A DNA stretch of 64,000 nucleotides, taken from positions 11,037,875 through 11,101,874 of the forward strand of contig OZ316891.1 in the NCBI GenBank assembly GCA_973895155.1. The letters run 5' to 3'. Below the pieces are notes generated by a model. That model was not told the DNA's origin, ran no database searches, and saw only the letters and a list, made by a program, of their open reading frames with translations. Both the position numbers and the translations under genes were made by a program. This DNA is from Marsupella aquatica. Taxonomy: Eukaryota > Plantae > Marchantiophyta. Below are positions 1 through 42,295 of the stretch, in pieces (position 1 is the first letter of the stretch; the number at the start of each line of letters is the position of its first letter).

Positions 1-2414
1 TGCTTGGAGGATTCAGATGCACCCTCTTGAGCCCGGGTGTTCACAATTTCAGCCCTCAACTCTTCTTTTGAAGGGCTTTGCCCCAATTGGGCTTTCTGCA
101 CATGCATGGCAAACACAAGTTATCGATCAATATTCAGGGAACGTACACTAAAAAACAAAGTTTACATGTATGGGTTTACACTAAAAAATAGTACATAGTG
201 TAGCATAAATTACATAGCTAGGCCATTCATTCTTACCAAACGTTTAGCTGTCGGTGCAGTGCCGGTCCTTCCTGTCAGATTAGGGTTCTGAACACTCAAC
301 CTGGCCTCGGTCATCTGTGAACTCTTCTTTTTTGAAGCATCTGTTACAAAATAAGCTACTAACCTTGCCCACACTTTATCATCACAACTGGCTGGTGGAG
401 GCATATCTGGCTTCTCCCCACCTTCCTTCCAAGCCTTATGCATTCTCCACCTCTCTTGCTTGATAATTTTACCTGCTGTACTCTCTAGGCAACCTATGTC
501 CACGCCATCATCACTGCCCACATAATTCCATTTGGCAGCAATATTTTCACATACAGTCTTCCAATCTTTTGGATGCTGTTTTTTAAAATTAATAGCACTC
601 ACATCTAACCAACGCAATACTTCAGCTTTCAAATCAGCATGCCATCGGTTCTTGCGAGGACACTCAGCATCCACCCATTGTCTCTCATTCAACTTTATGT
701 TCCCTTTCTTTGTCACCTCCCCTCGTGCACTGCTCTCGGTAGTACTGGGCGTTGTATTGGCCACCCCTTCATTCACCCTACCTGGGGTTCTGAAGCCACC
801 TGGGAAAATACAATGCCATTCATGCTTGAGAACTACATATAGCAGAATGGATGACGGCAACATTCAATGCTTCACTTCAAGAAAAATTCTTCAAACATAC
901 ATACCTGTAGCTCTGCCTGTAGATGCCTGTGCAGGGACTGCACTCTGAAATTGTTGCGACCCTGGACCACCTGTCCAGCCTAGTACATGGGCCGGATGAT
1001 GTCACTTTCTAGGTATGTGTGTGCAAACATATGTACTGAAAACTAAGTACAAACTGTAGGAAAACAACTGAACATTCACCGACATACCTGTCCCCCTTCC
1101 GTGCTGCATCTGCATAGGGGCATTAGTGAATACTTGAGTCGATGGTTCGACTGTCCAACCTGCACACATACATTTTCTATCATTATACATGTGCAGAGTC
1201 CCCCCCCCCCACGTGAATGGACTCCACATATAATGAGTTCTTCCATTGCTGACAAGATCAGACATTACCTGCTCCTCTTCCAGCGTTTGTAGGTACTGAA
1301 TTTTGATATCCCTGCCAATTACCTTCACCACCTTCCCAACCTTGTTCATTCCACGACCCACCACCATCCTCCCAACCTGGTTCAACCCATGTCTGTCCTT
1401 GTGGACATTGGAACTGATCATTACTAGCATTTGCCCAATCAGGTTGGGCAGAATCTGCATGCAATGGCAGGTGGACAGAATTTCATGTTGTCTGAATCCA
1501 ATACATCCCAAACAATGTCAAAAATTGATATGCAGTCTGAAATTCAGGAGTGCCATGCCTTCACAAAGAACTGGCATATAGATATATACTCACATCCCCA
1601 TGGTTGAGGTGGACGTCCATACCCACGAGATTGTGGGTTTGGACCTGCTCTGCCTCTACCACGGGCATAACCTAGAGCTTGCCCCCTGCCATAGTATTGG
1701 GCACCAGCCTGGGATCTACCACTACTACCACCTCGCCAACCTTGATCAGAGGTCAGCCCCCCTGCTGGTATGGTGCATGCACAGGCTTCGAAGGCAAAAC
1801 AGAACTGGCAGGACGCTGCATCACATCACCAACTACAATGTCAAGAACTAAGCAAGGTACATATGTGTAGTACTGAACATATGAAACCTCTAAACAAGAG
1901 TTTTTAACTCAAAACCTTGTTGGGAAAACTACTTACATGTTTCTTTTGGGGCTGCTCTGCAATGTATTCATCTTCATAACCCCCATCCTCATCCATTTCC
2001 TCTGGAAAATACTCATCATCTGCATCTTCTTGTCTAGTGTCTGCACCCACTTGTGCAGCATCAATGTCATCTCCACATTCTGCCATTGTAGGCACGACCT
2101 TCTTGCTCAACCTGTCACTCCGACGCACAGGCCCAGAGATAGTGCTGGTCACCCTTCTTGCGTACTCCTTTTGTTTCTTTGAAAATGCTGTGGCTCTGCG
2201 ACATTCCAATATGAGAATACAGTCACAATTTCAGTGCCACATTGAACTATTCATGTCACACAAACTCAGCGAAGGGGTGTAGTTGAGAATCGTTCCCTTA
2301 CAATTCAGCCACATCCTTTTCCAGATCTAGTTCTGCGATTTTGGCTTTCACGTATGCTCGTTGTTCCATAGCTTTCCTTTCATACTCACACATCTCTGTG
2401 TCACTCTGTTCCAT
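1..2414 (-). CDS. CACTA TnpA-like (Ptta/En/Spm, Transposase_24-like) multi-exon gene, continues off the left edge
   Basis: ORF 210..863 contains WARLVAYFVTDASKKKSSQMTEARLSVQNPNLTGRTG, typical of the Ptta/En/Spm domain. Upstream exon-like ORFs (2298-2414 MEQSDTEMCEYERKAMEQR, 1904-2209 with acidic tract, 1258-1464) have GT/AG-like boundaries. It lies directly downstream of TnpD. Exon structure is approximate. Confidence 0.65.
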
Positions 2415-2570
2415 CCTACTGGACCACAAAAACATGTCATCTATGGTCACCCCGTATAACACAATGCAACCACAATCACCAGGCATCCATCCATGCATCT
2501 GTGTTGCTTCAGAATTACTTTATTACACATCCTTCCCCTCACTAATGTCCATGCAAACAATTCACATTAC

Positions 2571-5500
2571 TCATGGCACAGGCACACTGTTGGCATCTGC
2601 ATCTCTGAATTCGCCTCCTTCAGCAAATGCATCTACCCTTGTCACAGGAATGAAGTCCCCGCTATCATGAACTACAAGCACTTGGTCTGAACGCCGACGA
2701 TCAAAGGCACTATGAGAGTGTAAATGAAACTCAAGGTTTGATCCTTCCATCTGACGTTGCCTGGCCTGTTTATGACACACTACACGCCAACCTGGGGAGT
2801 CTTCCACATCCAGGAAGAAAGCTTGCTCCACCTGACTAGGAAACACAAATGGCTCAGACCATTCGGGCAATTTCCCTCTGAAATTGGCCAGCAAGAAACC
2901 GTCGTTGTCTCTCTTCATGGTAGCCCTGTTACCAAGCCAATCCTACCGCACCCATGAACCTTTCATAAGAATCACAGGACTGGACACTGCCCCATAGTCC
3001 AGAGCCCATATGTCAACTAATTCTCCCACATATCCCATCTCCATCCAGGCCCTGTCGTGATTGTGGCTCTGTTGCTCAAATACAGTGATGAGCCCGCAGT
3101 CATTCGTCACCCTGTAGGCACTGTCACCATCCTTCACTCGGAAGTGATTCCCATATGCTCTCATCCGTTTGTAAGTCTTCACTTTCAGGCTAGGGGCATT
3201 AGACAGTAGGTAAACATCTGCATCCATGTCTGGGTGGGTCTCGTGATGCTCTCTAATTGCCACTCTGATCCACTCCATGAAACCTGGAAAAGTTGTTCCT
3301 GCAGTGGGATGGGCCGCCTTCAATGACTCATACTCCCTGAACGAACAACCACACAGCATTAGCTTGGGTAAACATGAATAGGCTGAAGGAGAAAACCACA
3401 CGAACACAACATGTAAGCTCATGAACTGGATTATAGCACATGTATGCACTCACTGTATCCAGGGTTCCATCACCACAGTGTTGTGCAATACAAAGTCATG
3501 TGCCAAGTCTCTCATAGATATGGTCAGGTTCTTTGTGGTTGCAGCCCCTTCCAGTACTTCACCTATCACCCCTTCCTCCTCATCAGAATTCCACACCCTA
3601 GTCTTCACATGCTCATATTGTGCTATGTATTCGGTCAGAAATCCCAGAGTCTCATCCTTGATGTAACCTTTAGCCATGCTTGCTTCAGGTTTGTAATATG
3701 TTCTCACGTGACCTTTGAGTAGCTTCATGTACCGTTCCAAAGGGTACAACCAACGAGCACTCACAGGCCCAAATTGGTGTAGCTCTTCCACAACATGGAC
3801 AAGTAGGTGGGTCATGACATCAAAAAATGCGGGAGGAAAATAAATCTCCAGGTCACACAGCACCTGAGCGACATCTTCTGTCAGTTGTGGGAAGTGTGTT
3901 TCATCCCAAACCTTCACACAAATACGACGAAACACATCACTGAGTCGCATGATCACAGTACGAACAGGCTTCTGCAACAGGCCCCTCAGGCATAAAGGCA
4001 ACACCTGTTGCATCAACATATGGTAGTCATGGCTTTTCATACTACCAAGCTTTCTAGTCATGATATGCTTCTTGAAAGCACTGCCATAGTTTGAAGGAAC
4101 CTTCAAAGAACTCAACCTCTGCACAAATAGTTCCCACTCTGTGTCTGTCAGAACATAGGGCGCTTGGTACTTCAAGAGCACATCAGCTCTGTGGGCATGT
4201 GGCCTCAACCAAAGATGGGGTTTCATTCCCCTCTGTTCAAGATCCAATCTCACTGAACCAGTGTCTTTCTCTCCACACAAGAATCTGAGTAGACTCTCAC
4301 AAATATTCTTTTCAATGTGCATAACATCAATGTTATGTTTGCTTGGCTCAAACTCCTGCATCGTTGCAATGCAAAAGCGTCAGGAAATGCCTCAAGTTTA
4401 GTCTCTCTCTTCGAAATGAATGCACATGCTCTGAACCAAAACATGTATCCCAATTAGCATCAACTCCAAGAGGCTTACCCTCCAGTACTTGAGCTCCAAG
4501 TCCAATATGCTCAGTCTTTTTACACCATATCGCTTTATTGGATCACTCACTCCATCTTCCCTGCCCCCTCGTTTGATATAGTCATCCCTCAGTGCTCCCC
4601 ACTGCCTGATCTCCTCTTTGGTCACTTGTGCCGGGGGTCCACATTGCTCAATCTCATTGCCAAAGTGTGCAATCAGTGCTTGTCTTTCTCTGTAAGGGTG
4701 ATCTGCCTTCAGAAAACGATGATGGCCCATGTATATCACTTTCTGCAGGGCTCTGGAGTACTCACTGGTGACATTGCGCCCACAGATAGTACAAGCACAA
4801 TATCCTTTTGTTGTTTGGCCTGATATCATCCCATGGCTGGGTAGTCAGCTATAGTCAGAATGACAATGGCTCTAAGGATGAATGGGTTTAACCTCCCAAG
4901 CCTCTGTAGGACATCATATGTGAGAACTCCTTCCTCCCAAAGCTTTCTCAATTCCTCCACTAGGGGAGCCAGAAACACATCTATGTTGGCAGATACAGCA
5001 CTGTCTGGCCCTGGTATCAGTAGGACCATCAGAACAAAAAATCGCTTTGTAGTCATCCAAGGAGGAAGGTTATAATTCAAAATAGTTATAGGCCAGCACG
5101 AAAATTTGTTGTTCTTGTCTCCAAATGGGTTTACCCCATCCAATGACAGCCCAAGTCTGACATTCCTCGGCTCAGCAGCAAATTCAGGATACATCTCATC
5201 TATGAGTTTCCATTGCCTTGAATCTGCAGCATGTCGTTGTAGCCCATCATCACTTTTCTTGTCAGTTGCCCAAGTCATCATCTCCGAGATGGCACGGCTT
5301 CTGAACATCCGCTGAAGTCTGGGAATGAGTGGAAAATGACGAAGTACCTTGGCGGGAACCATAGACTTTCCTGAGTTCCGATACCTGTGCTTCCCACACT
5401 TAGGGCATGTCAACGATTCTTTATACTCCTTTCTGAAAAGAACATGCCCATCAGGACAGGCATGGATCGAATCATAGTTCAATCCAAGATTAGATATGCA

Positions 5501-6469
5501 TCTTTTTGCCTCGTACATGTTCTTGGGCAAAATATTACCATTTGGTAGCACAGTTGTTCGCAAGAATGCCAACAACTCAGAAACCAAAACGTTGGGGACA
5601 TTGTGGTTGCCGCAAATGTTCAGGAACATGATGACAAATCCCAGTTTAGAACATTTGCTACCGGGGTACAAAGACTTCCTGCCTTCCTGTATTTGCAGGG
5701 GAGAGCCAAACATCCCATCATGCCCAGGGGTTTCCTGCCCTATCTCAAACTCATCAAGAGGCTCTTCGACAGGGGGCACACTTGCAGCTGCAGCCGTATC
5801 CTCTTCATTGTCCAGCCCATCATGAAATGCATCCAAGTCTTGGAAGATGTCTCTCACCATCTCTTCCACATGAATTCCTTCGTCAAGTGGTGCTGCCTGA
5901 GCACCATCCCGTTGGAGAGCTGACAACCCACAGAGACCAGCTACAACATTTTCAAATGCACCAGGCAGAACCTCACTTGCCCGTCTTGCAGCATTGGCAG
6001 CATCAAATTCTAACCTCCACTCCTCATCGGAAGAATCTTCCTCTGCAGGATCATTCCAAACTCGATGTCGTGGATCTCTTCCATGAACCGCGATATGCCG
6101 CCAAACCTCATTCAGACCCCTGGTACGGGATCCTTGGCAGATTGCACAAGGACATCTCATCCTACTGGCTCCTGAAAGTCTGGTTCGTAACCTTTCACGC
6201 TGCCAAAGCTTATTATCATGGCGTGATATCCTGTGGGATGATGCAAAGGCAGTGCCTGTGCCCTGGGCTGGGTCTGGGGAGGGTGGTGACCAGGGTGCAT
6301 TGTAACAGGCTGGGAGCTCTGCAGTCATGGACAGCAGTGAACAAGGATGCCTAATGGTGGTATTTGTGTTCCATATATCCCTGACTGTATCTGCCAAAAG
6401 AGTTAACATAACGTGTACTAAATTCTCACAAACCCTAAACCACCCCAAAAGAAAAAAACAGGTTCGCAA
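2571..6469 (-). pseudogene. CACTA TnpD/Tnp2 transposase (Transposase_21 + DUF4218 + DUF4216), disrupted
   Basis: Motifs IHACPDGHVLF, CPKCGKHRY, PRNVRLGLSLDGVNPF, YNLPPW, IDVFLAPLVEEL, DYPA, IDVMHIEKNI, MKSHDYH, FFDVMTHLLVH, WLYPLERYM, EPFVFPSQVEQAFF. Introns at ~4356-4479 and ~3338-3452; frameshift at ~4829; in-frame stop at 2943-2945. Confidence 0.95.
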
Positions 6470-6733
6470 GTAGTGTACCTATTGTCAAGTGAATGACACA
6501 AAATTCCTAAATGTTGGAGGGTGTCACCACCTCCTCCGCTGTCCTCAAATGTACCGCCTCTGCATGTACGTTTACAGTGACACCCCCAGGCAACAGGAAA
6601 TAACAATCCGCCAACAGTAAAATAAGCCCAACTGCCACCAACCATAACAAGGTACATTAGTTCAAAGATCACATTTATTTCAATGATCTGATTTATACAA
6701 AAAAACTTGTGTCCAAACTGATGCTACTACTCC

Positions 6734-7606
6734 TCACTCTGATTCAGAATCGCTAATGACCCATTCCTCACTTGTTGTCTCATAGTCCTCTCTGTAAGGA
6801 TCCTGACCCTTCCGTGGCCAGGCCTCAAAAAGATCATAGTCCATTGGGTTTTGACGCTTCCCAGCTGCTACTGATTCCACAAGCCAAGCATATGAAACCA
6901 CAAACACATTATGGGACATGACATAAAAGCGAATGTCTCCCTTCCCAAACTTGCGGCAGGCTTTGGGATATGACTTAGTAATGACATGAGTGGTGTCCTC
7001 TGTTATATTCTCCTCCACTGTCCCACCTAGGTCAAGCACTGTGGACTTGTACACTTTGCACTTAACCTCTCCAATTCCCGCCTCCACAAATACCATGCTC
7101 AGCCCTTTCAGAATGGGGGTTGGTTGCTTCGTCTCCTCAGCCAACATACTCTTTAGCCTTGTAGAGCTCTGTCCTTTGTTGAGTACAGGTCCATATTGGA
7201 GATCAGCAAGCCGTGCCTTTGCTTCCCAGACTTCTTGTTCAGCCCAAGCTGATGCAGTAGCTTCTTCATCCTCCCACAACTCATATTGCTCAGTATCCTG
7301 TACAATCTTATGTGCTATGGAATCTATGATCCAAGAGGCCTCAACTACTTTTAGGCCTTGCTTAGTAATTGCAGAATTCATGTAGGACCATGACCACTTC
7401 TTTATCACTGATAGCCATGTCCCTGCAACAACATGTGTAGTCTCTGGAGTGATGTCCTAAACTACAGTGCCATGGAGCTCAGAGAATCGTTTCTGTACAG
7501 TTGGCCAATGCACTTTGGTCAACCCATGCTGGCCATGGACCAAAATCGCTCTGACCCCTGTAAACACTGCTGGGTGGTCACACTTTCTACGTTTACCAGG
7601 CTCCAT
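6734..7606 (-). pseudogene. Tandem BRCT-domain protein (~290 codons) with one in-frame stop
   Basis: ATG at 7606 reads MEPGKRRKCDHPAVFTGVRAIL..LHGTVV*(TAG 7457-7459)DITPETTHVV..KVVEASWIIDSI..YEL. A second repeat reads ILKGLSMVF..LGGTVEENITEDTTHVI..VVSYAWLVESVAAGKRQNPMDYDL. Both carry the BRCT GG/THxx/W-x-x-x-S signature. Confidence 0.85.
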
Positions 7607-8198
7607 GTACACACACCCTACGTGATGACAGTGAATTTTGGAAGAATGGGTTCACCTCACAATACAAGGACAACAAAATTCCTACTTTTTGAGTTGATCT
7701 GGCCCACTGGTGCTCAGGTCCGATTTTGATAGGTACAAGGGATATGTGAACAATACGTACTAGGCACCTGCACGGATGCAGGACATTGTTTGAATATATA
7801 CTACAAAATCCATATCCGTGGTGAAATGAAGTGCAACCAACTTGTCATGACACATACATATTTTGTTGTAAAGGAGGATACATTCAATGACAAACTTATA
7901 GGGCAATTTGATTAATTGCATGCCTGATAATTTATACGCTTACAACTTAGAAGTCCTGTTTTAATTTAGCAGTCTGATGAAAGTGTTTATGAAAATGACC
8001 ACTCAGCCTAAATACTTCCAAGAAGGCTTGTAAGGATAAGTTTGTATAGGCATGTACCCAGCCACTGACGCCAGAGCACAAGATAAGTGCTGCCTATATA
8101 AACTCGCCTACCCAACTCCTTTTCAAAATTGGAATCTCTGCAATCTCAAAAAATAGTACATCCACATCAGGTGCACTGTGCATGTACAATGTTCAGCT

Positions 8199-8879
8199 TC
8201 ACAGCCAAGATATGTGATCTCTCACAGGAGTGCGCGAGGTAGGATCAATGGCATGGCGATGACAATAAAATATCCATCGATCAACACCATGTGCAGAGTG
8301 ATCATAGATTTCTCTATCACAAGCATAACCCTCTGCTTGATGATCTTTCAGGCAATGATAGTGCCACATAGTGGGACACCTAGCACAGTGGACTATGTCA
8401 GTCCAGTAGTCATCATCATGCTCACCACATGCCTTGCACCTATGAAGTGGGCAAGCTGTGGCATGAGCAGGCAAACACTCAAAACAGAAAAATCTCACAC
8501 AAAAACGGTCTGGACATTTCCTAACATTTGCTGCAGCATCAACAGAGCCCTCATAGGACCCCAACTTCCCACACTGTGCACACTTAGCCTGCTTCTCCAA
8601 ACAATCAGTGCACATCCAGTCTCCCTGGTGTGTTGACGGGAGGCCCACCCCTGGACAGTTGTTTTCTACAGCAAGGTCAGACTCCGGGCTGAGGTGGAAA
8701 TGCCTCATGCAAGGGCCCTCACAAATGACCAGGCCCCCACCATCGTCACAAATGGCACAACAATGAGCTGCCTTCTGGAAAATCTGACTTGCAGAGAAGT
8801 TAGTAGCATCTGCCCCAAGTACACCTGTGTTTCTCACCTCTGTCACACGCTTTTTGGCTTGAATTTTAGGCCGTGCCAT
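8199..8879 (-). CDS. Stand-alone EDM2/NSD-type composite PHD-finger protein (226 aa)
   Basis: Intact ATG-to-stop, intronless ORF: CAICDDGGGLVICEGPCMRHFH..CTDC..CAQCGKLGS..CPLHRCKAC..CARCPTMWHYHCL..IFYCHRHAID..TPVRDHI. The order and the C-terminal TPVRDH motif match the PHD cluster of plant EDM2 as I recall it. Confidence 0.85.
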   Translation of the reverse strand: MARPKIQAKKRVTEVRNTGVLGADATNFSASQIFQKAAHCCAICDDGGGLVICEGPCMRHFHLSPESDLAVENNCPGVGLPSTHQGDWMCTDCLEKQAKCAQCGKLGSYEGSVDAAANVRKCPDRFCVRFFCFECLPAHATACPLHRCKACGEHDDDYWTDIVHCARCPTMWHYHCLKDHQAEGYACDREIYDHSAHGVDRWIFYCHRHAIDPTSRTPVRDHISWL

Positions 8880-8890
8880 GCCTGCGCATG

Positions 8891-9034
8891 AGATAGACTC
8901 TACAATTTAGCAGACTACACAGAAAGTAAAATATATTTAGCATTTAAGGTACAAAGGCATTTAGATAGACTCTACAATTTAGCAGACTGCACAGAAAGTA
9001 AAATATATTTAGCATTTAAGGTACAAAGGCATTT
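8891..9034. repeat. 72-bp direct tandem duplication (2 copies)
   Basis: agatagactctacaatttagcagact(a/g)cacagaaagtaaaatatatttagcatttaaggtacaaaggcattt occurs twice, just upstream of the PHD ORF start. Confidence 0.9.
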
Positions 9035-9649
9035 GCTACTGCAATGAATTGGAATGGCCACACAAGGATGCAGAGCACACATACTTTTGGTATGTTGAGC
9101 CCACACACAAAACTGATCCCCTAATACAATTTCTCCACCAACACCTCAATTTTAATTGTGGCTATGATTCACCAAAGGAGATCTGCAACAACATTTCATG
9201 CATTTGAATCACATACAATAGTCGTGACATGTAAAACAGGCATTCTTCGAAGAGGATTGGTATGAAGCAGTGTCATAAGGGTTGAAATTTATACATCCTA
9301 AATAGGTTATGATAGTGGCTGAGACAAATAAGTGAGGCATAAATCATTTTGCATATTATCACATGGCCCATTAATTCATTCAACGTTGCAATGTTCACCA
9401 GGTTAAAGCAGTCATGAAAGCAGTCTTTCAATAGAGACTTTTATGCGAGTTTGCTAGCCTCTTAAATTAGGATATTTTGCTTAGTGCAGGCATAATAGGA
9501 TATAAGTTATGTACTGTTGACCCTAAACCCTGGACCCAAAATTGCTCATACATCAAAATTTTAAGTAAATATCCTCTGTGTTGAAGTTAGAGTGTTAAGC
9601 TATAGGTCAATGGTATCTGGTCTGTGCATGCGGTGTGACAAGTGGTCCT

Positions 9650-10099
9650 CTAGAGCATGTGATCCAAACATGTGTAGACACCAAAGTCACCGGTGGTGGG
9701 GTCTGGGAGGGCAGGACAAGTGACATCACCAGGCACACTACAGGATGGCGAGTGGTTCCAGATGATACATTGTGCTCTATGCAAAAATCGGCATCCAAGA
9801 GAACGGTCATCCAATTCTGGGCCAGAAGCCCTATAGGCAGGACAGTCATATTGGCAACTGTGTACACACCCTTGGCACCTAATTTGTGGCGGGTCATGTA
9901 CAAGAGACACAAATACCAAGGATGTCGGGAAGGGTACTGAAGCAGGTAGAGGCCGGCTGTAGTTGTTCCTGGAAACAACAAGGTACTCAAAGTACCATGC
10001 AGACTGGGCTGGAAGGATCCCAAGTCTGACATACTCAAGGCGCAACATCTCTGCCTTGCGTGCAAGTCGCACATGTTCAGCGTTGCGGGTCCTCACCAT
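9650..10099 (-). CDS. Small Cys/His-rich protein, possible extended-PHD-like zinc finger (149 aa)
   Basis: ATG-initiated ORF with a basic N-terminus and CQGC..C..C..CRFLHRAQC..YTCLDH spacing; co-oriented with the PHD and BRCT ORFs. Confidence 0.45.
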   Translation of the reverse strand: MVRTRNAEHVRLARKAEMLRLEYVRLGILPAQSAWYFEYLVVSRNNYSRPLPASVPFPTSLVFVSLVHDPPQIRCQGCVHSCQYDCPAYRASGPELDDRSLGCRFLHRAQCIIWNHSPSCSVPGDVTCPALPDPTTGDFGVYTCLDHML

Positions 10100-11107
10100 A
10101 AGTGTTGCTTTCGTTGTGATGTCCTCTGTTCACGTCCTTTGATGAGCAAGGTGAGCAGGAGGTCGACTTGCCTCGCCAACAGCAACCACCTAAACTAATC
10201 AGTTCCCACTCATTGTCTTGGTTCCAACTACAGGTCATAGTATACACATAGCATGAAACGTGCATAGTACATATTTGATTCTGAGTTTATGAGTTTCCTA
10301 AGACAAAGAGCTTGGTGATAAACCCATATTCTCGACGGACATGTATATCAATCATATTAAACTCCTGTTTTTTCATCCAGAAAGACCGAAAGTCTCACCT
10401 TGCAGGTTGCAGTAGAGAGAAAATTCACTGGTTGTCGTGTTGTGCAAGTGAACCTCCACTGATGCCCCGGTGTAGCCCCTCAGATGCAGGTGACACTTAC
10501 CAACTCCCAAGTTGCCTGGTCTAACAAAAAATGCTTATATCTTCAGAACTTTATAGAGCAAGTACATGATCACATACTTCTGGATCTATTCATATTTGGA
10601 ACTCTTGCCAACTACAACTCCCATTATGCACAAGCTCACATCAACAGAGAAAGATACAGAATGCATACTTACTATGGCTCTAAGCACCTTCACTACCTTG
10701 TTGAACCCAGTCCTGAAGTCTTTTCAGCGTGTTTGTTGTGCTGTCTCCTTTGGCACCCAACACCTTAGTCCTTGATGTAACAGAATGCAATTTTACAAGT
10801 TAGATGCTTTGGAACCTTCTATGGTCTTAGCTGAATTGATGTCATCGTAAGTGGTGAAAGACAAGGAAGACGAAAGCTGGTTGAAGAGCTGTGGACAACA
10901 CACTAGCATGAAGTGCTTCAACCAATCCACTGCCAAACGGAACTCTTACATAGTCACATTCTTTTAGTAAACAAAAACTCAGTCAAACTTCAGAATCAAA
11001 GTACAGACTCTGAAGGACCAAAGGAGGATGTTGTGAGTTTCTCTGTTGTTTAATGTGTTACCCTTCTAGTTTCGAAGTTAGCAAATGCTGAATAATGTGT
11101 CTACCAG

Positions 11108-11450
11108 ATCTTCGAAAAGAAGCCCACCACAATTAAGAACTTCGGTATCTGGGTCCACGTATCAGAGTCGTACAGGTTATCACAACATGTACAAGGAATA
11201 TTGTGATACCACAAGAAACAGAGCTGCAGAGCAGATGTATGATGAGATGGCTTCTTGTCATAGAGTTCAGTTCCCTTGCATCCAGATCATGAAGACTACG
11301 ACAGTCCCTATCTCTCTGTGCAAGCGAGAAAGTACCAAGCAGTTCCATGATTCAAAGATCAAGTTCCCCTTGACGTACTGCAAGATTCAACCTCCATTGC
11401 GAAAGCTAAAGACGACTTACAAGGCCACCAAGTCCAACACAATTGTTTGA
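11108..11450 (+). pseudogene. RPL18A: 60S ribosomal protein L18a (eL20) C-terminal exon fragment
   Basis: [15 protein letters not shown](frameshift)[52 protein letters not shown]. Preceded by T-rich intron-like sequence ending CAG (11105-11107). The N-terminal exons are absent. Confidence 0.9.
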
Positions 11451-12636
11451 GTAGTGCGGGTGCAGGTTCCCAATTTTGAGACAATTTGGCTCATTTTATG
11501 TCCCGAGGGAATCCTGGAGTTTATGTATTGAGTTTCTAGGTGAAGATGCTTAATATAAGGAAATTCAATTATCACTTCGTTCCCAACTTCTATTAATTGA
11601 AAATACACAAGCTAGAAGCAAGAAGACAAGCCACAATCTAGCATCTTAGCCAAACACAATCGTCCCGACAAAGCAAAACTCAGCTGGACAGAAGTCACTC
11701 GGATCCACAAAAAATTGAAGATTCACCTCCAAGCCGGAGGCTGATCACTTCAGTACAGCAGCTTCTAGACGGAACAAACTCTGGTCAGCCCCACAGAAAC
11801 ACAAATGTTAAGGCTCCAAGTCAGAGCTCACAAACAGAAACTCAGATAAATAACATTCAAAATCTGTCCAGGTTTGTGCAAAGTGTACATATTCATTCTT
11901 CTGGAATGAACACGCAATGCATACATCACCTAGACACAGTCATTATAAATCATTGGGCGATTGGGGACCACTAAGCAGGTGTGTTCCTATTTCGAGGCTA
12001 CAGGAAAGGATAGAGTGACACCAAACTCAAGAGTACACCAAAAGAAAAACAGCAAGAACCAAAGTCAATCATGTGTGGATAAACTGCACATGGGAAGTTC
12101 CCCTGAAGAAGCATCAGTTGCTAACATTGTCACCCGAACCACACCTAGTTTATGACCTCAATGTCTTCAGCCTCAATATCCAATCCTCAGCCCCTGGTGC
12201 TTCCGTGTTTGTTCTGAAAATTTCTGTGATGAAATAATTATTCAATACATTCAATAGGAGTTCAGACAATCTGAAGAGGACTTTGGACTTGAATGGGGGA
12301 CAGCGTGGCCATATAGTTATCCTTGTGGCCTTCAACTACGTGTCTCACGCTGAATTTCACTTTCCAGTTTTGAGAGTTGTGAAGGTCTAGTTTTAGTAAC
12401 TTCCTCCTGACTCGACTTGGGAGCATTCTCTATATTTGCTAGCTTGTAGTTAGCTTTGACTCCTTTCAGCTTAGTTGACGACCCTCTTGAGATATTAACA
12501 ATTAGAACAAACACAAGTTGTCAAGACAGATTCCACCGGAGCAAAAAGTCCAAAACCAGGTGAATGAAAACCTAAGGAGAGTCCATAAGAACGAAAGTAG
12601 GAAGGCAGGCGCACGGGCCACCGAGAAAAGTAAAGG

Positions 12637-12797
12637 ATGCATGTCATTAGTGGGGAGGGATCTTAGCAAAAGCAGGGGAAAGCAAGGGAACTTGCGGCTA
12701 AAATCAGCTGAAAGATGCATGTGATTAGTGGGAGGGATCTTAGCAAAAACAGGGGAAAGCAAGGGAACTTGCGGCTAAAATCAGCTGAAAGATGCAC
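12637..12797. repeat. ~79-bp tandem duplication (2 copies)
   Basis: atgcatgt(c/g)attagtggg..gatcttagcaaaa..aggggaaagcaagggaacttgcggctaaaatcagctgaaag is repeated. Confidence 0.9.
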
Positions 12798-14293
12798 AGT
12801 TCCTAGAAATGTAGTGAACCTTAAGGTCGTCTGTTCACCCCCACACCCCACCGCCGGGCACAAGGCATGTTCTGATACAGGGAGGAGCAAAACAATCATG
12901 TCAAGCAAGAAGTGTGGAGAGACCAATCTGTAAGCAAAAATAGGGGAGAACATACATACATCAGCAGCAACAGGAAACAAGAAAGATGAGTTCGGAAAGC
13001 ATCTTAGGGTCGGGGACATCACTGCAACACCGGGACTTAGGATATGACTTGTTCTTAATCTGTTGATAGCATCCGGTAGGCCGACAACCCATGGCAAAAG
13101 GGCAGAGCAGCAATAACAGTTTGAATCTGACGGATGAAGCTCCAGGCAAATGAGCTCCAGGCGATTGGGTGCATGATTGAGTAGGCGATTGTAACAGCAG
13201 GCACCAGGTAATTTAAAGGAAGCAACATTCGGCAATGGACCTAGGCAGCTCACAAATTTTGCTTAGCAGCGATGTCACCTAGACCCTAAACACGCAATGC
13301 ATACATCACCTAGACAACTATACTTGCAGTCACGAGGTGAGTCCGCGTCGATAGGGGATTGCAGCCTTACCTGTGCCGATGTAGCACCAAGCCGCCCTAA
13401 CTGAAGCTGCGTAGCAATCCGCAGCAATCGCTCAATGCAAAACAAGTCCCCGGTTGGCCTTGCAGCCCGATCATCCACCTTCAACCCTGCCACCAAGCAA
13501 TGAGCTCTCCGCTGTTGCTCACCCTAAACCTTCAACACTCCCGCAAAGTTGTGTCTGCCCGCAAGATTGGGTGCGTGATTGATTCGGCAATTGTAACAGC
13601 AGGCAGCCGCAATCGGTCGCAGGTCATGGATACACAAGCTCCAATGTGCTCCCTTTAGCTTAAACAATACCAGTTGTCGCTCACCGCCAACACTTTCAGC
13701 AACAACACATATTTGTTGTAGTCCGCACCTTAAACCTTAGCCATGGGGTGGTCAATCAAGTTCCGCAATGCCTAAAACACCGACCACCTGACTTACATGA
13801 AATGTGCACACAGCTAAGCTCACCTGCAGCTCACGCCAACCACATTGGGACAACTGAAGTGAATACTGCCGTAGCTGAACTTGACTCCTCGCGACTCTTT
13901 CGCGCCTCCGTAGACTGCCTTACTCACAGTGCCCAACGCAAAAAAAGTCCCGGTCAATGTTGCAGCCACGATGCTCCACTCCTGTAGTTTGCACTTGCTC
14001 AGCTCACTCTGCCACAGAAGTAGACTTCTGTCGCACCTCCCTGCAGGTTGACGCTCAACGTTCACTACCCCAACTCACTCAAATTTGAACACTCGCAACT
14101 CCAAATTGGCAGCTTCCGCTCTCAACTCCCTAAACTTACACTTGGTAGCTGCAGCCAAAAGCTTGCCATTTGATGAATTGTGATGCCTAGACAGGAATCA
14201 CTCGGCCAGTTAAGTGGGTAAAGCAGGAAGGCACCCTAGGAACACCTTAGTATAGGGACAAAACAAGGAAAATATAAACCATTAGGGGCAACC

Positions 14294-17200
14294 ATGGAAC
14301 CCGGGCTGAGGCCGGAGGTAAGGACGCTGAGGGTGAAAACTCAATTAGGGTTAGGGCGCGTTAAGCGTCGGCGGCTAGGAAGGATCAACGGGAAGAAGGA
14401 CCGGCAGAGGAGAGGGGTAAGGAGCGCTTGCAGGAGATGGTGGCTCATTTGCGAACACAAACTAGGCAGACGACTACGGGAGGCCAACTACTGTCAGCTG
14501 CTTAGGCAAGCACTCGGGGAGAGAGTAGATACCGACGTTCGACCTAAGGAGGGTATGAGCAACGTCAATCAAGCGGCACATTTCTGGGGATGCCTGTTCG
14601 AACGGGCAACTGAGTACATCAAGACTTACAAGGACGAGGAATCAGAAAGGGCAGCTCGAGAACGGCAGGAGCTCGCTCGATTGTGGGAGCTGCAGAAGAC
14701 GGCTTTCTTAGGAGGCGAACTCATCAAGGACGAGTTCCTGTGGACGCCTACTTCCAATCAACTTGACGATCTTCTGTTTTGCAAAGACAGCGTCGTCGGC
14801 ATCCGAGAGGCCATCAAGAACTGCAACGACATACACTGGGAATTAAAGGGTAGCACGGAAAGGTGGACCCAGGCAACGGTGCTAGGAGAAACCTCCATGG
14901 CAGCAGAGATGAAGAGGAAGGGAGCCGTCAACGATGAAGCCACCCCGGCAAAAAGAACGAGGTCGGCGGCACCAAAGAAGCCAGCCGAGCAGCAGAGCAG
15001 GAGGCAGGGAGAAGCCGAAGAGGAGGAGGTCGATCCCATCAAGGCCATTCCAACCAGGGATGACACCTGGAAGGGCTGGGCGGCAACCCTACCGGTGGAG
15101 GTGCAACTACATTTTGCGCGGGAGGAGGATGCATGCTTCACGGCCATGCAGACCAAGAAGTACCAAGGCTTCATGGCCGGATCCGGCTTAGAGGCCTTTG
15201 TAAGATTACCATGGCTGAAGCCAGAGGTACCGGAGTCAGACCTATTAGAATTCGTGGGGTCATGGGAACCCGAGACCAATTGCACGAGGATATATGGGAA
15301 GGATTTCTATCTTACTCCCAAGGTAATTGCCGAAGTGTTTGGCTTGCCGATAGGCAATAAGACCAAAGTTGATACCAGGAAGACCTTGCCTGACAAGGAG
15401 TTCCGGTCGTTCCCCGGGCCATCAACGAAGAATGGCTTCTTCCGGAACACCTGCACCAACCCGCACATAGGAGAGATGATCGACTTCTTGCGGGTGACCA
15501 TGCATTGTAACTTGCCGAGGGCAGAGATCGGCAAGGCACAGGTCTATCTGGCAGAAAGGCCAGACCCAAGCCGGGACTACAACGGGTACCTCCTCAACCG
15601 ATTGAAGAAGATCTTAAAGGAGGAGCAGCAGGTAATCGGCATGGGGAGCGTGTCGCGGCTTGGCTATCACATGCCGCTGTTGTGCCGGTATGCCAGAGGT
15701 CAGACTTTTGCCCCGGTACTTCCCCTACAGGTAAGGGCACCCGAGGAAGCTCCAACGCCGAGGCCGTTGGCTGAGAAGCCTCAACCACCTATTAGCCCTA
15801 CGATCGAGCAGGTGTTTAGGCCCAGGAAGGAGGACTTGCCGATGCAGCAACCAGGCATGCAGAGTCTGTTGAAACTACTGGAGAAAGAAAAGAAATCGGC
15901 ATCGGCAACAATGCAGGACACTACTACAGAGGTAGGCCTACACCGGCTCACAAGAGAAAACCCCTTTGCTGGAGACAAGGAGAGAATCAGGCCTGAATCC
16001 AAGCCAGGTGTTCGAATGTATGTGGGAATCTCAAGCTCCGAATCTGAGGCAGAATTGCCTGAAGCTCCTACCGACGAAGAGGAGAGGGAGAAGCCGGACG
16101 GCCAAGAAGTAGAGGAGGCAGTGGAGGACTGCAGCCATGATAATTCCGGCTATGGGTCGGACCATCACGTTCCAGGAGTAAGGACCTGTGGCCGGTTTGT
16201 CCCCACACTTCCAAGGGTAGTGCGAGGGGACCCCAACCAGCAGAGTAGCCTTGAGTCTCCCCCACCAGATGTTGCTCCCCCGAGCTTCGACGGCATAAAA
16301 CAGACGGAGCAGGAATTTCAGGAGCGAATCAAGCAGGAAGAGGAGGCAGCCCTGGCTAGGGAAAAGGATTTACCAGGAGGAGATTGGCCGGAGGACATCA
16401 GGCGGCTAGCCAAAAAAGGAAGCAAACCTCTAGCCACGATTGAAGAGATCCGCAAGACGGCTTGGGAGCAGAGGCCGCGATGGGCGATGCCGATCACTTC
16501 TACTTACTCCACCTACGCTAAGAATAGAGCCATGGAGTATGGTGAGATGTGTGGGGAACTTGCGCTCGGCATCTTTGGAGAGGAGTTGGAGGTAGGACCC
16601 TTTTCCATAGGGAGCAGTTGGAGAAGCACCAATTAGAAGAAGCGGTGGCTTTAGAGAGAAGCAAGAAGGACGAGGTCATTCGGCGGCTTAGGAGGATGGA
16701 AGCCGAGATTGAAGATCTAAGGGCGGCCAAGAAAGCCCAAGATGAACTGCGGATTAAACGACATGAGCTGAACATCATGCAGGGGCAGTTGGACACCGCG
16801 CAGGCTGATAATCAGAATATCAAGGATAAATTGACTCAGATGCAGGGAGAGTTGGCCGACACGATCAAAGAGAGGGAGAAGTGGAAGCAAGAGCTGAAGA
16901 ATGCAGAGGAGGCCCACATAACAGCCAACAGCTGGGCCATGGCGGAGACCCAAAGAAAGGAATGGGCGTTGAAGGGGGAGCTCGAGAAAATCCGCGGAGC
17001 CCTTGAGCAGAAGGAGGCCGAGTTAGGGAAATCCTATCAAGGGATTATGGCGCTGCAGCAGGAGCTTGCGTCCCTGACGGCCAGCTTCAAGGCCGACCTA
17101 AGGGAGAAGGACGAGATGCTCGAACAGACTTACGCCAAGATGAACCAGATGGAGTTTGTCATCATTGCAGAGCTCGACAAGGAGCTAAGAGCAACCCAGG

Positions 17201-17535
17201 AGGAGAGGACTACCTTGAAACAAGAACGGGAGGAAGCCCAGAAGGAACTAGAGGAGGCACGCAAGGACCTGGACGAGACCCAGGAGGAGTTGGAGGAAAT
17301 CACGAGGAAGATGGAGAACCTCCAGCGGCGGGCCGACAACCAAACGGAGCGGCTGAAGAAACAAGCCGCAGTATTTAAGTGCTTGTCTTCATCAGGCCCA
17401 ACTCCAATTGGGGCAACCAAGTTACCAGGAGTGGTACTGGCCGAAGAAAAAGCCGCGCCAACTACACCAGTGCCAGAAGTAAGTGGGAAGGGGAAGGGAC
17501 CAGCTGCCGAACCAGAAAAGAAGAAAAAGCGGAAA
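14294..17535 (+). pseudogene. Retrotransposon accessory-type ORF (plant transposon protein/Athila-ORF1-like domain plus long coiled coil), frameshifted at ~16600
   Basis: LLEFVGSW..TRIYGKDFYLTPKVIAEVFGLP resembles the domain in extra ORFs of plant Gypsy elements. It is followed by an acidic/Pro-rich linker, ~250 aa of heptad coiled coil and KKKKRK. The sequence is CpG-rich relative to its flanks, with no gag/pol or LTR nearby. Confidence 0.55.
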
Positions 17536-18920
17536 CCTTCAGAGAGTGGGTTGAGGAAACGATGGTGCAAGAGATGAATTGGCAGGTTCTGCAAGTTAAG
17601 TACGTAGGAAAGAATTTCTACTTGGTAGTATTTGCACAGCGTGATCATCGGGACGCAGCGTTGGAGTATGCACCGTGGTTCATGGAACGCAGGTTTGTCT
17701 ATACCTTTGCGTGGGATCCCTCGTTTGACATCAAGAATGAATCATACACTAAATTCCCGGTCTGGATTGAGATTCCATACAGAGCATTAGTACTTGAAGG
17801 ATGCAGGAGGAAGATTGTGGAATCCTTTGGACAGTTGCTGTATTACATTCAGGGGGATGAGTTCAGCTCCTACCCGCATGATAGGGCCTGCATTCTATGG
17901 GACACTGAAAGGGAGATCCCGGCTAGCGCTCGGATTAGAATTGGAGATGACATCATAATATGGCAGCCTGTTACATTCAGGAACATCCCGTATCATTGCT
18001 TTAAATGCAACCTTAAAGGTCATCTAGCTAGAGACTGTGTCATGGGAAGCACGGAAGTAGAGAATGAAGCTCCCGGATTATCTAAGAAGACTTTGGACCC
18101 GGCGGCTGCCCCTTATCGAGCGGCTGAAGTGGCAACAGATCCTCCTTCAGCGGCAGCTGAGGCACGTATTGATGGTCTTCAGTATAAGCCTGGTATGGTC
18201 CCAGTTGATACTGGAGTGGAAGCAGACATATTGCAGGTGGAAAATATTCTGTTGCAGGCTAGTGGTACACAAGGAGGAAATATTGGGGCTGCACCTGTGA
18301 CTGTCGAAGATCAGAATGGTAGCAGGCCGTTTGGGGTTTTCAGGCTGGGGGTCGGACCCTCCTTTCCTGAGGACCCTGGGGATGCTGGTGTGCAGCTAGA
18401 CACTTTGGGGCTTGACGAGAGGGGGACAAGGGCCAATGGTGAAGGAGTTGACGGGGGAAGGAGCCTGGGGGAATCTAGGCCGGACACTTTGCTGCAGTCA
18501 GGGACTGTTGGTGCTGATGACTACTCATTTCATGGGGATACTGACATGGAGCTCTCAGAGTACGAAGAATACATATCACGAAGTCAAACTAAACTTAGAG
18601 CAAGGAAACAAGAGCTGAGAACCCCCCCAAATCGCAAATTGGAAAAAGATAAGATGGAAGGGAAAAAACAGCGCTCCTTAAGCTTCTCACATGAGCCGTT
18701 GTTGGTTGCAGAGGGAAGTGGACCAGGAGGTGTTGCTGCTGCCACTGAGGAGGCTGGGGAGATAGCGGAACATACGGGTGGGTCTGCCAAGCGCTTGACT
18801 CCACTGGTTGCTTCTTCTCCTGTGGGGACTCGGATCCTAGGTAACCCGGAACTGGGGGTCACTCCCCCGGCTGAAAGAATTGGCAGGGTGGCCTCACCTG
18901 GGGCTCCTCCTTGTATCTAG
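17535..18920 (+). CDS. LINE ORF1 (DUF4283 RRM-like region and zinc knuckle), N-terminally truncated
   Basis: QVKYVGKNFYLVVF..APWFMERRFVYTFAWDPSF..PVWIEIP..CFKCNLKGHLARDC. Confidence 0.85.
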   Translation, partial: TFREWVEETMVQEMNWQVLQVKYVGKNFYLVVFAQRDHRDAALEYAPWFMERRFVYTFAWDPSFDIKNESYTKFPVWIEIPYRALVLEGCRRKIVESFGQLLYYIQGDEFSSYPHDRACILWDTEREIPASARIRIGDDIIIWQPVTFRNIPYHCFKCNLKGHLARDCVMGSTEVENEAPGLSKKTLDPAAAPYRAAEVATDPPSAAAEARIDGLQYKPGMVPVDTGVEADILQVENILLQASGTQGGNIGAAPVTVEDQNGSRPFGVFRLGVGPSFPEDPGDAGVQLDTLGLDERGTRANGEGVDGGRSLGESRPDTLLQSGTVGADDYSFHGDTDMELSEYEEYISRSQTKLRARKQELRTPPNRKLEKDKMEGKKQRSLSFSHEPLLVAEGSGPGGVAAATEEAGEIAEHTGGSAKRLTPLVASSPVGTRILGNPELGVTPPAERIGRVASPGAPPCI

Positions 18921-18969
18921 GTGTGGGGGATCGCTAGATCCTCGGGCTTACCTCTGTTGGATAGCCTGA

Positions 18970-21900
18970 ATGGATAGCCCATGGAAAATCGCCTCTTGGA
19001 ATGTGTGCGGGCTGTGTGAGCCCAATAGGAAACATGTGATCAAAAACTGGGCCGTGGCATTAAGGCCCCCTCTGGATATATTTGCATTACAAGAAGTAAA
19101 GTCAGAACAGTTCAGATTGGACATTGCCCTACGTACTATTCTACCACTGTATCAACACTTCTCTGCGGCCCCGGATGGGGGACGGGGGGGGGGGTCAGCC
19201 CTGCTCATACAACCCCTGCTTAAAGTGATTAGATCTGGTGCACTTGAGCTTGGGAGAGCGGTATGGGTGATTATAGAGCATACTAGTGGTATGATTGGAG
19301 TGGTAAGTGTGTATGCCCCCAACTCTGCAAGACAACGGGCTCTGTTATGGCATGAACTCAAGGTAGAACTGCCACAAGCGAACTGGATTTTGTGCGGTGA
19401 TTTCAACATGACTGAATCTAGGATGGATTCATCGAGCGGATCATCCTTACTGAAGGGACAGGAGGCAGAATTTTGGCGTTTTTTACAAGTGCGATTGGAT
19501 CTTATTGATGTCTATAACCTGGGCTGCACAGTGATAGGATCCAGATACACGTGGAGACGTGTCCGGCATGCAAACCTCACACAGTCTAGACTGGACAGGT
19601 TTTACCTTAGTGGTCTTGGAGGTTGGATTGCTGGCATAGTGGAGCTAACTCATGATGGGGGCTCGTCACTGTCGGACCATGATCCCATTGTGGCTGTTTT
19701 GCGCTTTCAGATTGAGGAGAGGGATTCGGAAAGAGGTAAGTCCCACTTTTTTAAAGCTAACCCTTACGTACTCCGGGATCCGAAGAATATTGAGCAATTG
19801 GAGGTTGCTTGGCGGGCGGGGGGGGTGGGCGAGGTGAACCCTCACTTGCGTTTCTCTCGTGCATGTCAGAGACTACGAAAAAAATATACGGAGTTGCAAT
19901 CCGCACCGAGACAGTCTGAGGAGGAGTTGAACTTTCTGAGAGATAAAGTGAGAATACTTAAGACTACTATTGTAGATGAATGCTCACTGGATGAACTGAC
20001 AGAGTTTCTGCAATGGGAGGACATGCTTCACGTAGCTGAAGTTGAGACGGCGCACCAGGCCAGACGGTTAGCCAGAACTCGGTGGCTGGGAGAAGGGGAG
20101 GAATCAACTAAATTTTACTTTGCCACAGTCAAGGCTAAAAGAGAGAGAGAAGCTATGAGGATGCTAGTAAAGGAGGATGGATCGGTACTTAAAGATTTCA
20201 AGGACATCATTGGGGAAGTAGAGCAGCAATGTGAGGCGCTTTACTCTCCTGGGCAACCATCTGAGGAGGAGCTACTAGAAAGCAGGTGCAATAGGGATAA
20301 AAGCTATTGCGGAGTACTAAATCAGCATTCACGGCGGCAAAGATACACAGGATGGAGGCACTTCCTACGATCTCCGAGGTGAAAGAGGTGTTGTGGCTTC
20401 TCCCGGAGGACAAGGCCCCTGGGACGGATGGGCTCACGGCTGAGGTTTACAGAGCCTGTTGGGAGTTCATGAAGGATGATATGGTGGCAATGATACAGGA
20501 TTTCTGGCTCACAGGCGAGTTGGCTGCTGAGATCAAGGATGGCCTGATAAAGCTGATACCAAAAAAACCTGATAAAAGATACTTGAAGGACTGGCGCCCT
20601 CTGACGATGCTTAACACTAGCTACAAAATCCTGGCCAAAGTGATCGCTCTACGAATTAAGCACCTGCTATGTAACCTGATCAGTCCTCAGCAGACCGGGT
20701 TTATCCCGGGTAGACATATCTTAGAGAATATTTTGCTTGCTTGGCTTACAAGTGACTGGGTTCAGAATTGCAGGAAGGGAGCATTATTCCTAAAACTTGA
20801 CTTTGAGAAAGCATTCGACAGGGTTAACCACGAGTATCTCTGGGAGTCTATGTTGCTGCTGGGATTTAGTGGTAGGATTGTGAACATAGTTAAAGCCTTG
20901 TTCTCTAATGCCAGCTCTCGAGTACTAGTCAATGGCTTTCTTAGCAAATATTTTTTGATGTGCCGGGGGGTGAGGCAGGGATGTCCTCTCTCCCCTCTTC
21001 TATTTGTGATTTCTACCCAACCTCTCATGGATTTCTTGGATGCTGAGCTTGTGGCTGGTCGACTTGCTGGTATCCAGGTTTCAGATGTGCTTACAGTGTG
21101 CTACAGATTGTTTGCTGATGATGTGGGGATGTTCATCCCTGCAACAGAGGAAGCGTTTAGGGATGCTACTACGGCTCTGTCATGTTATGAAAGTGCATCT
21201 GGTGCTAGGCTGAACTTACAAAAATCTGTTATCATCCCACTTGCTTTGGACCTAATTCCAGACTGGCTCAAGGCTACAGGCTGCAAGATTAGTGAGCAAG
21301 GTGAAGTGCAGAAGTATCTGGGTGCTCCATTTGGTATTGGACTCTCAGTGGGTAATTTACATCGCTTCTGCCTGGATAAGGTTGCTGCACGCTTGTCCTC
21401 TTGGTCAAATAAATTGCTGTCCTTCACAGGTCGGACATTGCTGGTGAAACATGTGCTCATGGCAATACCGATATATCACGTAATGTATATGAAGGCCTCG
21501 GAAGGGCTGGCAAAGAAACTGATTGCGCTGTGCAGGGATTTTCTATGGGGTTATAATTCTGCGGGCGGGAAGAAGATTCCGCTGGTGGCATGGGACAAGA
21601 TGGCTCGCCCTAAGGTGGATGGCGGACTAGGGTTTCGTGACTTTAGAAGTCACTCTGATGCGTTACTTACTCAGTGGTTTATGAAGGCCTTGGACTATCC
21701 CAACACGGAATGGGCTGGCATGCTTGCTGCTAATCTGAGTCTTATTGGATGGCTGAATTTCAGGGTGATTAGGCGAAATCACTACACATTTGCAGATAAG
21801 CTACTTTTATGTACTCCAAGATCTTGCTGCGGGCTGACATACACTTGGGGAATCTGGAAGGCCTGGGAGGCTTTGAGAGCAAATCTTTCCTTTGTCCCAG

Positions 21901-22895: not shown

Positions 22896-23391
22896 TGATG
22901 CTTAGAGTAGGTTAGGCTCTTTGATTGGTGCTGTGGCTTTGGTGGGCTTGGGTTGGGCTCAACTGTGCGGCTCTGTTTTTGCTTTTGGGGCTTGCCCTTG
23001 TGTTATGGCTTCAGGCCTTTAGGGTGCTCATGGATCTGGCTCTCGCTGTCGTTGACTGGCTGGCTGGGGTTGGGCTCTTTACCGGGGCCGTATATGATGT
23101 CTGGGCGAGCCCTGTTTTAGGGGTGCCCTGCTGGCCTCCTGTGGACGTTGTCCTTTTGTGCGTGCTTGTGCTGTTTGCTTCCCCCGTCGTGGGGTTTTCA
23201 CGGGTTATTTCTATAAAAGTTTGAAAAAATTTCCAAGGAAGATTGTGTAATCCTGGCCACACATGAGCCTTGGAAGTCCTTGGACATGAAGTCATTTCCC
23301 CTAGTCCTTGGGGCCTCCTTTGGTACCCCTCTAGCTTGCTTTTGACCAAAAGGGTGAGGAGGGAGGAAAGCCTGATACGCCAATCTGTGTC

Positions 23392-33647: not shown

Positions 33648-33841
33648 ATATAGAGTTAACCAAGAAAATGTCTCTATATGAGTACTCCATCCGATGGCTT
33701 ATCGGCTACGGCTTAGTTCTAGTTAACCCTTGCATTAGGGGAAGGGTCTTTTGGCCCTACTGTCTTGAACTTCCCGCGGAGGAACTTGTAAGGAAAAGGC
33801 AATGTTATGAACCCTCCCAAGACGTGAGTCAAGGGGGAGTT

Positions 33842-42187: not shown

Positions 42188-42295
42188 AAAACCTGAATCT
42201 GGGTTATTATAATTAATCAAATATGTTTTTAACAAAATAAAAAAGAGTGCCAAAAAAGTGACCATTTTGTACTATTCTGTCCTCCCAAAACATAT

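Follow-up and report, generated by a model that had tools for sequence, protein, structure and literature searches.

Transposons of the CACTA (En/Spm) type are the closest described relatives of the element reported here, which lies in a 64,000-nucleotide stretch of Marsupella aquatica (Marchantiophyta; contig OZ316891.1, positions 11,037,875 to 11,101,874 of the forward strand; hereafter the window, with coordinates counted from its first base). The element shares with them a TnpD gene bearing Transpos_assoc, Transposase_21, DUF4218 and DUF4216, and extra sequence in its 5' part; a putative TnpA-like gene of the Transposase_24 type lies behind TnpD. The additions described for CACTA elements include Peptidase_C48 domains, short host fragments and satellites (PMC8978399), whereas the element in the window carries three complete genes, each standing alone and with conserved homologues at deep divergence: a PHD gene, a BRCT gene and a third open reading frame (ORF), ORF3, together called the cassette. 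These three genes are very probably selected cargo of the element, and we see about an even chance that a many-copy plant CACTA lineage has long kept them upstream of TnpD as small accessory genes, likely for enzyme-free nuclear adaptors that serve transposition.

Element-encoded products thought to counter silencing include VANC of VANDAL elements and rice miR820, the latter borne by a CACTA element, and the cassette would share this idea with them (PMC6719617). For VANC, anti-silencing has been demonstrated and needs a tandem DNA motif (PMC6719617), whereas for the cassette we only infer it; none of our searches returned a sequence link between VANC and the cassette, and no VANC-like motif array was found in the window element. 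That review, of 2019, gives only three transposon-encoded anti-silencing mechanisms (PMC6719617), and PHD in Rehavkus transposases is described alongside VANC in MULEs (PMC6446971). CopiaMBD, like the present element, keeps a host-derived epigenome reader, and differs in being a retrotransposon of animal hosts with a methyl-DNA reader whose binding was shown (PMC6673714). No paper describing a CACTA element with EDM2-type PHD or BRCT genes was found in the literature searched, with most subscription papers and Repbase outside its coverage. A PHD-bearing barley retrotransposon, considered as a further precedent, was not confirmed, as PMC5738225 does not contain the term PHD and names only a unique Abiba ORF.

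On the minus strand, from right to left, the element runs through ORF3, the PHD gene, the BRCT gene, TnpD (about 6400 to 2571) and the TnpA-like exon, as follows:

210 to 863, minus strand: TnpA-like exon with a Transposase_24 match; more exons are likely at 864-2500
2571 to 6409, minus strand: TnpD, in several pieces, with Transpos_assoc, Transposase_21, DUF4218 and a weak DUF4216
6734 to 7606, minus strand: BRCT gene, 290 codons with two BRCT repeats, broken by a TAG at 7457-7459
8199 to 8879, minus strand: PHD gene, a stand-alone EDM2-type PHD cassette of 226 amino acids with a basic N-terminus, open in the window copy
8891 to 9034: 72-base-pair tandem duplication that closely precedes the start codon of the PHD gene
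9650 to 10099, minus strand: ORF3, 149 amino acids, Cys/His-rich, open in the window copy
10100 to 13000: probably the 5' section of the element, found in a smaller number of copies, with an RPL18a retrocopy and a 77-base-pair tandem pair (12636-12796)

A first-pass annotation, made from the sequence alone, had described three single-exon frames that lie immediately upstream of a CACTA TnpD and read in its direction; this arrangement holds, as do the residues it gave for the protein starts. Both Transposase_21 (E 7e-49, 166 bits) and DUF4218 (E 5e-28, 98 bits) lie above their curated cut-offs in TnpD, and Transposase_24 in the TnpA-like exon reaches E 1.5e-4 and 22.3 bits, under its cut-off of 28.7. 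Repeat depth is present from base 1, placing the left part of the element beyond the edge of the window.

The three genes are highly repeated together with TnpD and TnpA. Words of 6500-10200 are shared by ten sequencing runs under seven organism labels, five of them sharing half or more; the best-sharing runs may include the source of the window, and for organism C two runs have no cassette words and a third shares 0.51, a difference that has no bearing on expression. Contigs of four runs were placed on positions 1-14000, where 5,050 contigs (run X3) and 10,884 contigs (run X2) were spread across all identity classes. Mean summed depth, which is not copy number and is used only as a sign of a large diverged repeat, was 60,285 (X3) and 127,181 (X2) over TnpA/TnpD, 77,939 and 197,273 over the cassette, and 20,961 and 32,759 over 10,275-13,076; the depth of the 10100..13000 part is roughly four to six times lower than that of the cassette, and beyond 13,077 the depth is about 4,100-4,300. 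There is no depth break at the junction between TnpD and the cassette (6409-6734), and 271 contigs fall on 411 bases of the BRCT gene. Contigs from X5 (6234-6569, 7328-7626 and 7597-8145) and X7 (6540-6903) overlap along TnpD, spacer, BRCT gene and spacer, and in these two runs, which carry the codes of other organisms, the contigs crossing the TnpD-spacer and spacer-BRCT junctions show 0 and 7 differences. A more diverged family in X5 and X7 peaks on TnpD and the PHD gene and not on the spacers, as expected if the coding parts are conserved. A single-copy host locus is excluded by the thousands of diverged contigs; of the outcomes that the first-pass annotation had named as speaking against it (single-copy host genes in synteny, other CACTA copies without the ORFs, or a ratio of nonsynonymous to synonymous change of about 1), none appeared in these comparisons, which cover repeat depth, tiling and homologues and do not extend to synteny or shared terminal repeats.

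The window itself holds a decayed, dead copy that is atypical of its CACTA family. The TAG in the BRCT frame is codon 50, and TnpD carries one-base frameshifts near 4834 and 6231. At base 7459, G or T, which gives a Gln or Lys codon instead of the stop, makes up 99.6% (X1), 98.8% (X2), 100% (X5) and 100% (X7, where the depth at this base is only 3.4) of the depth, and each of the four runs placed on 1-14000 commonly has a one-base insertion behind 4834 and behind 6231. No insertions or deletions are listed in 7200-7610 among the contigs of X1, X2, X5 and X7, and the BRCT and TnpD lesions are private to the window copy. The earlier description of three compact open frames is correct for the PHD gene and ORF3 and had overlooked the stop in the BRCT gene. 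Likewise, the three genes are intronless in their coding parts, but an acceptor-like AG precedes the start codon by 2 bases in the PHD gene, 11 in the BRCT gene and 26 in ORF3, so that introns in the 5' untranslated region (UTR) are possible. TATA-like boxes are located at 9293, 7936, 7800 and 6697 and an AATAAA past the BRCT stop. These signals, all pattern matches without a chance control, would be compatible with small individual transcripts that have introns in their 5' UTRs, or with one shared leader.

The assignment of the PHD gene to the EDM2 type was borne out. Three NSD-like PHD models match it (E 7e-5 to 4e-3, under curated cut-offs), and NSD2/NSD3 are its closest solved relatives. 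When 1.84 billion representative sequences were searched with a profile, 563 matches resulted, headed by short proteins resembling the query and followed by EDM2-like proteins matching over the whole cassette, including some that bear an RFD. The alignment with host EDM2 takes in the entire PHD cassette and the motif after the last finger (profile positions 33-215), whereas the window-type protein, at about 220 amino acids, has neither the DNMT1-RFD-like N-terminal nor the methyltransferase-like C-terminal part, is encoded in a single coding exon and exists in many copies. The methyltransferase-like ELP domain and the large multi-domain body of the EDM2 family are thus absent from the 226-residue protein, and its frame stops where the cassette stops, in the window as in the homologues.

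Searches for near-length proteins, carried out for all three genes, yielded homologues that are unnamed Logan records. For the PHD gene there are five (81, 74, 52, 38 and 38% identity, 217-245 amino acids), in whose alignment Cys or His occupies 24 of the 52 invariant columns. The three most distant of them retain 79, 74 and 74% of Cys/His residues compared to 46, 30 and 30% of other residues. In neutral simulations (substitutions only, 1,000 runs) the 99.9th percentile of Cys/His identity was 71% and 55%, and only 0.3% and 0.1% of runs stayed open at 52% and 38% identity. Judged by these comparisons, the PHD gene is under purifying selection on its zinc ligands. In a tree of the 133 of 155 rows that cover the cassette, a branch of 0.67 separates ten short rows from 123 others (SH-aLRT, a likelihood-ratio branch support, 95); in a second tree of 46 of 48 chosen rows, with two C-terminal fragments left out, 18 short rows lie on one side of a 0.8 branch (SH-aLRT 93). 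The short PHD genes, a family chosen by eye, therein form a group of their own apart from the host EDM2 rows. Among 20 proteins of this family, 7 are whole, 7 enter unrelated sequence at seven different points, 3 stop and 3 have no start, and breakpoints so varied fit decaying transposon copies better than a conserved intron.

A metagenome scan for the surroundings of PHD homologues found 13 loci, all distant (26-48% identity), which hold EDM2-like proteins, either long or short and in the latter case from a different branch, or else PHDs without relation to the query; the viral and prokaryote collections gave none. We also noted a second, independent short PHD-only EDM2-like set (L002-L007 and L013; P0040, P0042, P0047, P0050 and P0061), several members of which end in a Gly-Trp-Leu-Asp-Asp-like motif. 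P0040, P0042 and P0047 nest among host-type EDM2 rows, and short proteins of this kind are a separate derivation. The structure model of the PHD protein (mean predicted local distance difference test, pLDDT, 47) was unusable, and its fold search gave weak PZP/PHD matches only (best E 0.002); neither the PHD nor the BRCT model found a match at E 0.001 or better. Such a minimal EDM2 PHD cassette would be useful for structural work.

The tandem BRCT architecture was likewise upheld. The protein consists of a basic N-terminus, BRCT1 (residues 14-111, approximately), a linker of about 50 residues, BRCT2 (about 163-260) and an acidic Ser/Thr tail. BRCT2 is above the Pfam cut-off (41.2 compared to 21.3 bits), and BRCT1, weak by itself (E 0.006), aligns to BRCT2 over 99 columns (hhalign 96.9%). 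Two near-length homologues share 57 and 54% identity over 294 and 295 amino acids; in one of them, P0008, BRCT is matched in two stretches. The basic N-terminal peptides that had been noted for all three proteins are present in the window, but that of the BRCT protein is not kept in P0008. Third codon positions account for 19 of the 40 variants listed out of 53 found in the BRCT gene, and one diverged haplotype has 9 synonymous and 14 changed codons, derived from 27 of 36 differences, where 25% synonymous would be expected at random. In the acidic tail (6734-6800, minus strand) the pattern Tyr-x-Thr-Thr/Ser-x-Glu is kept in the window and both homologues, and we take it to resemble the CK2 sites that dock FHA repair proteins. 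The searches with the BRCT gene and ORF3 covered near-length proteins, among which there was no close host match to either gene.

The phosphate pocket of BRCA1-type pairs is formed by a Ser/Thr-Gly after strand 1 and a Lys in helix 2 of the first repeat. In our alignments, on which this comparison is based, the three distinct sequences show His-Gly, Pro-Gly or Ser-Gly in BRCT1, where no Lys is aligned, and BRCT2 has a Lys aligned to that of BRCA1 with Ala, Lys or Glu before the Gly. As the pocket is conserved in neither repeat, the phosphopeptide binding that had been attributed to the pair is doubtful. The protein shares the BRCT fold signature with tandem BRCT proteins (BRCA1, Rtt107, DNA ligase IV) and with the Pol X BRCT, but differs from these in its linker of about 50 residues and in having no conserved Ser/Thr-Gly phosphate site; the searches pointed to no specific donor. 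PDB searches returned generic BRCT matches, the best being Rtt107 and BRCA1 repeats (E 1e-4 to 1e-2). An origin of the pair from plant Pol lambda is a lead that these searches did not support, with PDB matches at E 0.99 or absent (those retrieved included no plant Pol lambda) and all Atlas values under 0.9. The BRCT structure model (pLDDT 34) was unusable, and rows from the non-homologous end-joining complex that topped its fold search (E 0.2-0.5) were not used as evidence.

ORF3 had been described as a finger protein and chromatin reader, a claim that found no backing: neither ORF3 nor its two homologues match a Pfam family, the Atlas search gave no meaningful match (leucine-rich repeat matches were rejected for low recognition, with 93-117 of 256 shared features), and what remains are nine Cys/His invariant across three sequences. 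The two near-length homologues (55 and 54% identity) end at nearly the identical place. Cys/His residues are identical in 9 of 15 cases, which does not exceed the identity of other residues; the evidence for selection on ORF3 comes from its conserved length and the nine invariant residues. ORF3 is predicted to bind zinc and may be a new zinc-binding fold. With the BRCT pocket not conserved and ORF3 without a family, the label of three chromatin readers was an overstatement.

The assignment of the cassette to selected cargo follows from its repetition with TnpD/TnpA, the homologues of like length, the separation of the PHD group from EDM2 and the retention of zinc ligands beyond neutral expectation. 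Repeat depth, contig tiling and the stand-alone homologues accordingly agree with the earlier view that the genes are borne by the element and are not random host fragments; as judged from sequence, the cassette appears to be neither a fresh capture nor a set of host genes.

How the three proteins might divide the labour can be proposed only tentatively. EDM2 is a protein of H3K9me2 chromatin, to which it binds, and keeps proximal polyadenylation sites in transposon sequence from being used (PMC7529245; PMC10241880); it raises COPIA4 and lowers Mu1 transcripts, with COPIA4 transcripts falling in edm2 mutants (PMC3632883). The PHD protein, an EDM2 histone-reading cassette without the other EDM2 domains, would occupy chromatin of the H3K9me2 type along the element and help transcripts to extend as far as the distal TnpD/TnpA genes, either by mimicking EDM2, in which case early polyadenylation in heterochromatin would be suppressed, or by masking the mark from silencing readers. 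Such self-licensing is ranked first, ahead of insertion targeting and, at a distance, passive capture, because an EDM2-like activity would benefit an element in which several kilobases of methylated DNA precede the transposase genes. The BRCT protein most plausibly serves the repair of transposition breaks, in that host proteins of break repair would be held by the pair, at the sites of excision and insertion, through ordinary protein contacts and without a classic phosphopeptide pocket. In plant Pol lambda, a 13-residue nuclear localisation signal and a 96-residue BRCT that binds Lig4 and XRCC4 form the N-terminus, and the enzyme is tied to excision-site repair (PMC4444747); Ku binding by the Pol lambda BRCT is also described (PMC10657183). 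A bolder version, which we regard as rather unlikely, is a three-gene counter-defence kit made up of a miniature EDM2 that turns H3K9me2 into a licence for read-through, a BRCT end-joining adaptor and a new zinc-binding fold, possibly expressed from one shared spliced leader. If true, no earlier case of a transposon mimicking the EDM2/ASI1/AIPP1 pathway would be on record in the literature searched. A widespread CACTA family that keeps an EDM2-derived reader and a BRCT adaptor under selection would offer candidate proteins, small, soluble and open to testing, for explaining how plant genomes of very large size remain full of active DNA transposons.

Several observations weigh against this interpretation. 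The PHD protein has none of the EDM2 regions outside the cassette, so that it may not recruit the ASI1-AIPP1 machinery, and as EDM2 also represses Mu1, an EDM2-like reader need not be anti-silencing. CpG dinucleotides are strongly depleted in the element (observed over expected, o/e, 0.24-0.40), a sign that CG methylation has reached it. Neither a terminal inverted repeat nor a target duplication was found in the window, the other end of the element being outside it, and none of the 32 contig pieces listed covers both the cassette and TnpD; physical inclusion of the cassette in the element hence rests on tiling and depth. The depth of ORF3, and in X2 that of the PHD gene, is two- to three-fold above that of TnpD, and both genes may in addition be carried by derivatives or by other elements. 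The BRCT gene shows purifying but modest selection in the stretch examined, both PHD trees are quick trees without bootstrap, and some of the distant homologues (38-57%) could be host genes or genes of other elements.

Of the alternatives, the one that survives best also takes the genes as selected cargo, with the PHD protein, perhaps together with ORF3, tethering the transpososome to marked chromatin and thereby steering insertion into gene-poor heterochromatin. A reader without an effector domain suits tethering, the window is a nest of LINE (long interspersed nuclear element), Copia and other repeats, and CopiaMBD, for whose MBD such steering is proposed, sets a precedent for a captured reader that biases insertion (PMC6673714). 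However, the reader is separate from the transposase and not fused to it, its contact with TnpA/TnpD is hypothetical, and one insertion site is uninformative on bias. We consider such targeting possible, if on the unlikely side.

Passive Pack-CACTA capture, by which host fragments would have been taken up once and amplified without function, is improbable. CACTA elements do pick up gene fragments in their 5' region (PMC8978399), the RPL18a retrocopy just upstream resembles such cargo, many short PHD-family members are broken, and protein databases that keep only open frames of like length bias the sample to intact survivors. Yet the zinc ligands and the 0.3% and 0.1% of neutral runs that stay open lie far from a neutral course, the PHD gene starts and stops at conserved places on a long branch from the host EDM2 rows, and the partial data of the dN/dS type (ratio of nonsynonymous to synonymous change) already lean to below 1. 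The PHD gene is no recent, neutrally decaying host fragment of the Pack-CACTA kind, and the BRCT gene and ORF3 have same-length homologues at 54-57%.

Still less probable is that the three genes only happen to adjoin a CACTA copy, being themselves a mobile unit of another kind or a host cluster that was domesticated: the missing element ends and the excess depth of ORF3 and the PHD gene would suit it, but contigs cross the junctions, the depth continues through 6409-6734 and the thousands of diverged contigs rule out a single-copy host locus. Decoys in trans, soaking up EDM2 partners or repair factors and so weakening silencing or checkpoints generally, would match the usual dominant-negative shape of binding modules without catalytic parts, but we hold them to be very unlikely, as the transposon anti-silencing systems described are narrow in effect (PMC6719617).

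Toward the 5' part of the element, five CACTA/G pentamers occur in 10-14.4 kb, none established as an element end. The CACTA pentamer at 12812-12816 was rejected as the 5' end, because joints in X2 put 12867 and 12982 in related copies. Two contig joints near this part, 1889 to 11681 and 158 to 12982, are both weak. The RPL18a copy (11085-11450, plus strand) is intronless (Pfam E 1e-16), with a frame break near 11156 that is absent from many other copies. The depth over it, 15,000-54,000, suggests that only some copies of the element contain it; it looks like passive cargo and is useful as a neutral control.

The gene content of the window as a whole (EDM2-type PHD, CACTA, Copia, OPT transporter) is that of a plant. 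Outside the element, the plus strand at 14294-22895 has a 780-residue ORF without a Pfam match and a coiled-coil ORF, followed directly by a LINE ORF1 (DUF4283, zinc knuckle) and a split ORF2; together they may represent a LINE whose coding region extends unusually far in the 5' direction. A long broken coding region at 23335-27900 (plus strand; CpG o/e 0.24, no Pfam match) contains zinc-finger-like and DDE-like segments and is probably an unclassified DNA transposase, possibly with some likeness to P elements. Two Copia copies (28546-34142 and 49280-55301), about 97% alike and 21.2 kb apart, both have stops or frame breaks. An array of a repeat of about 109 base pairs (10-12 copies, 65-90% alike) occupies 42271-43625. 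The only clear host gene in the window is the first exon of an OPT oligopeptide transporter at 62270-62872 (plus strand), with a CpG o/e of 0.82.

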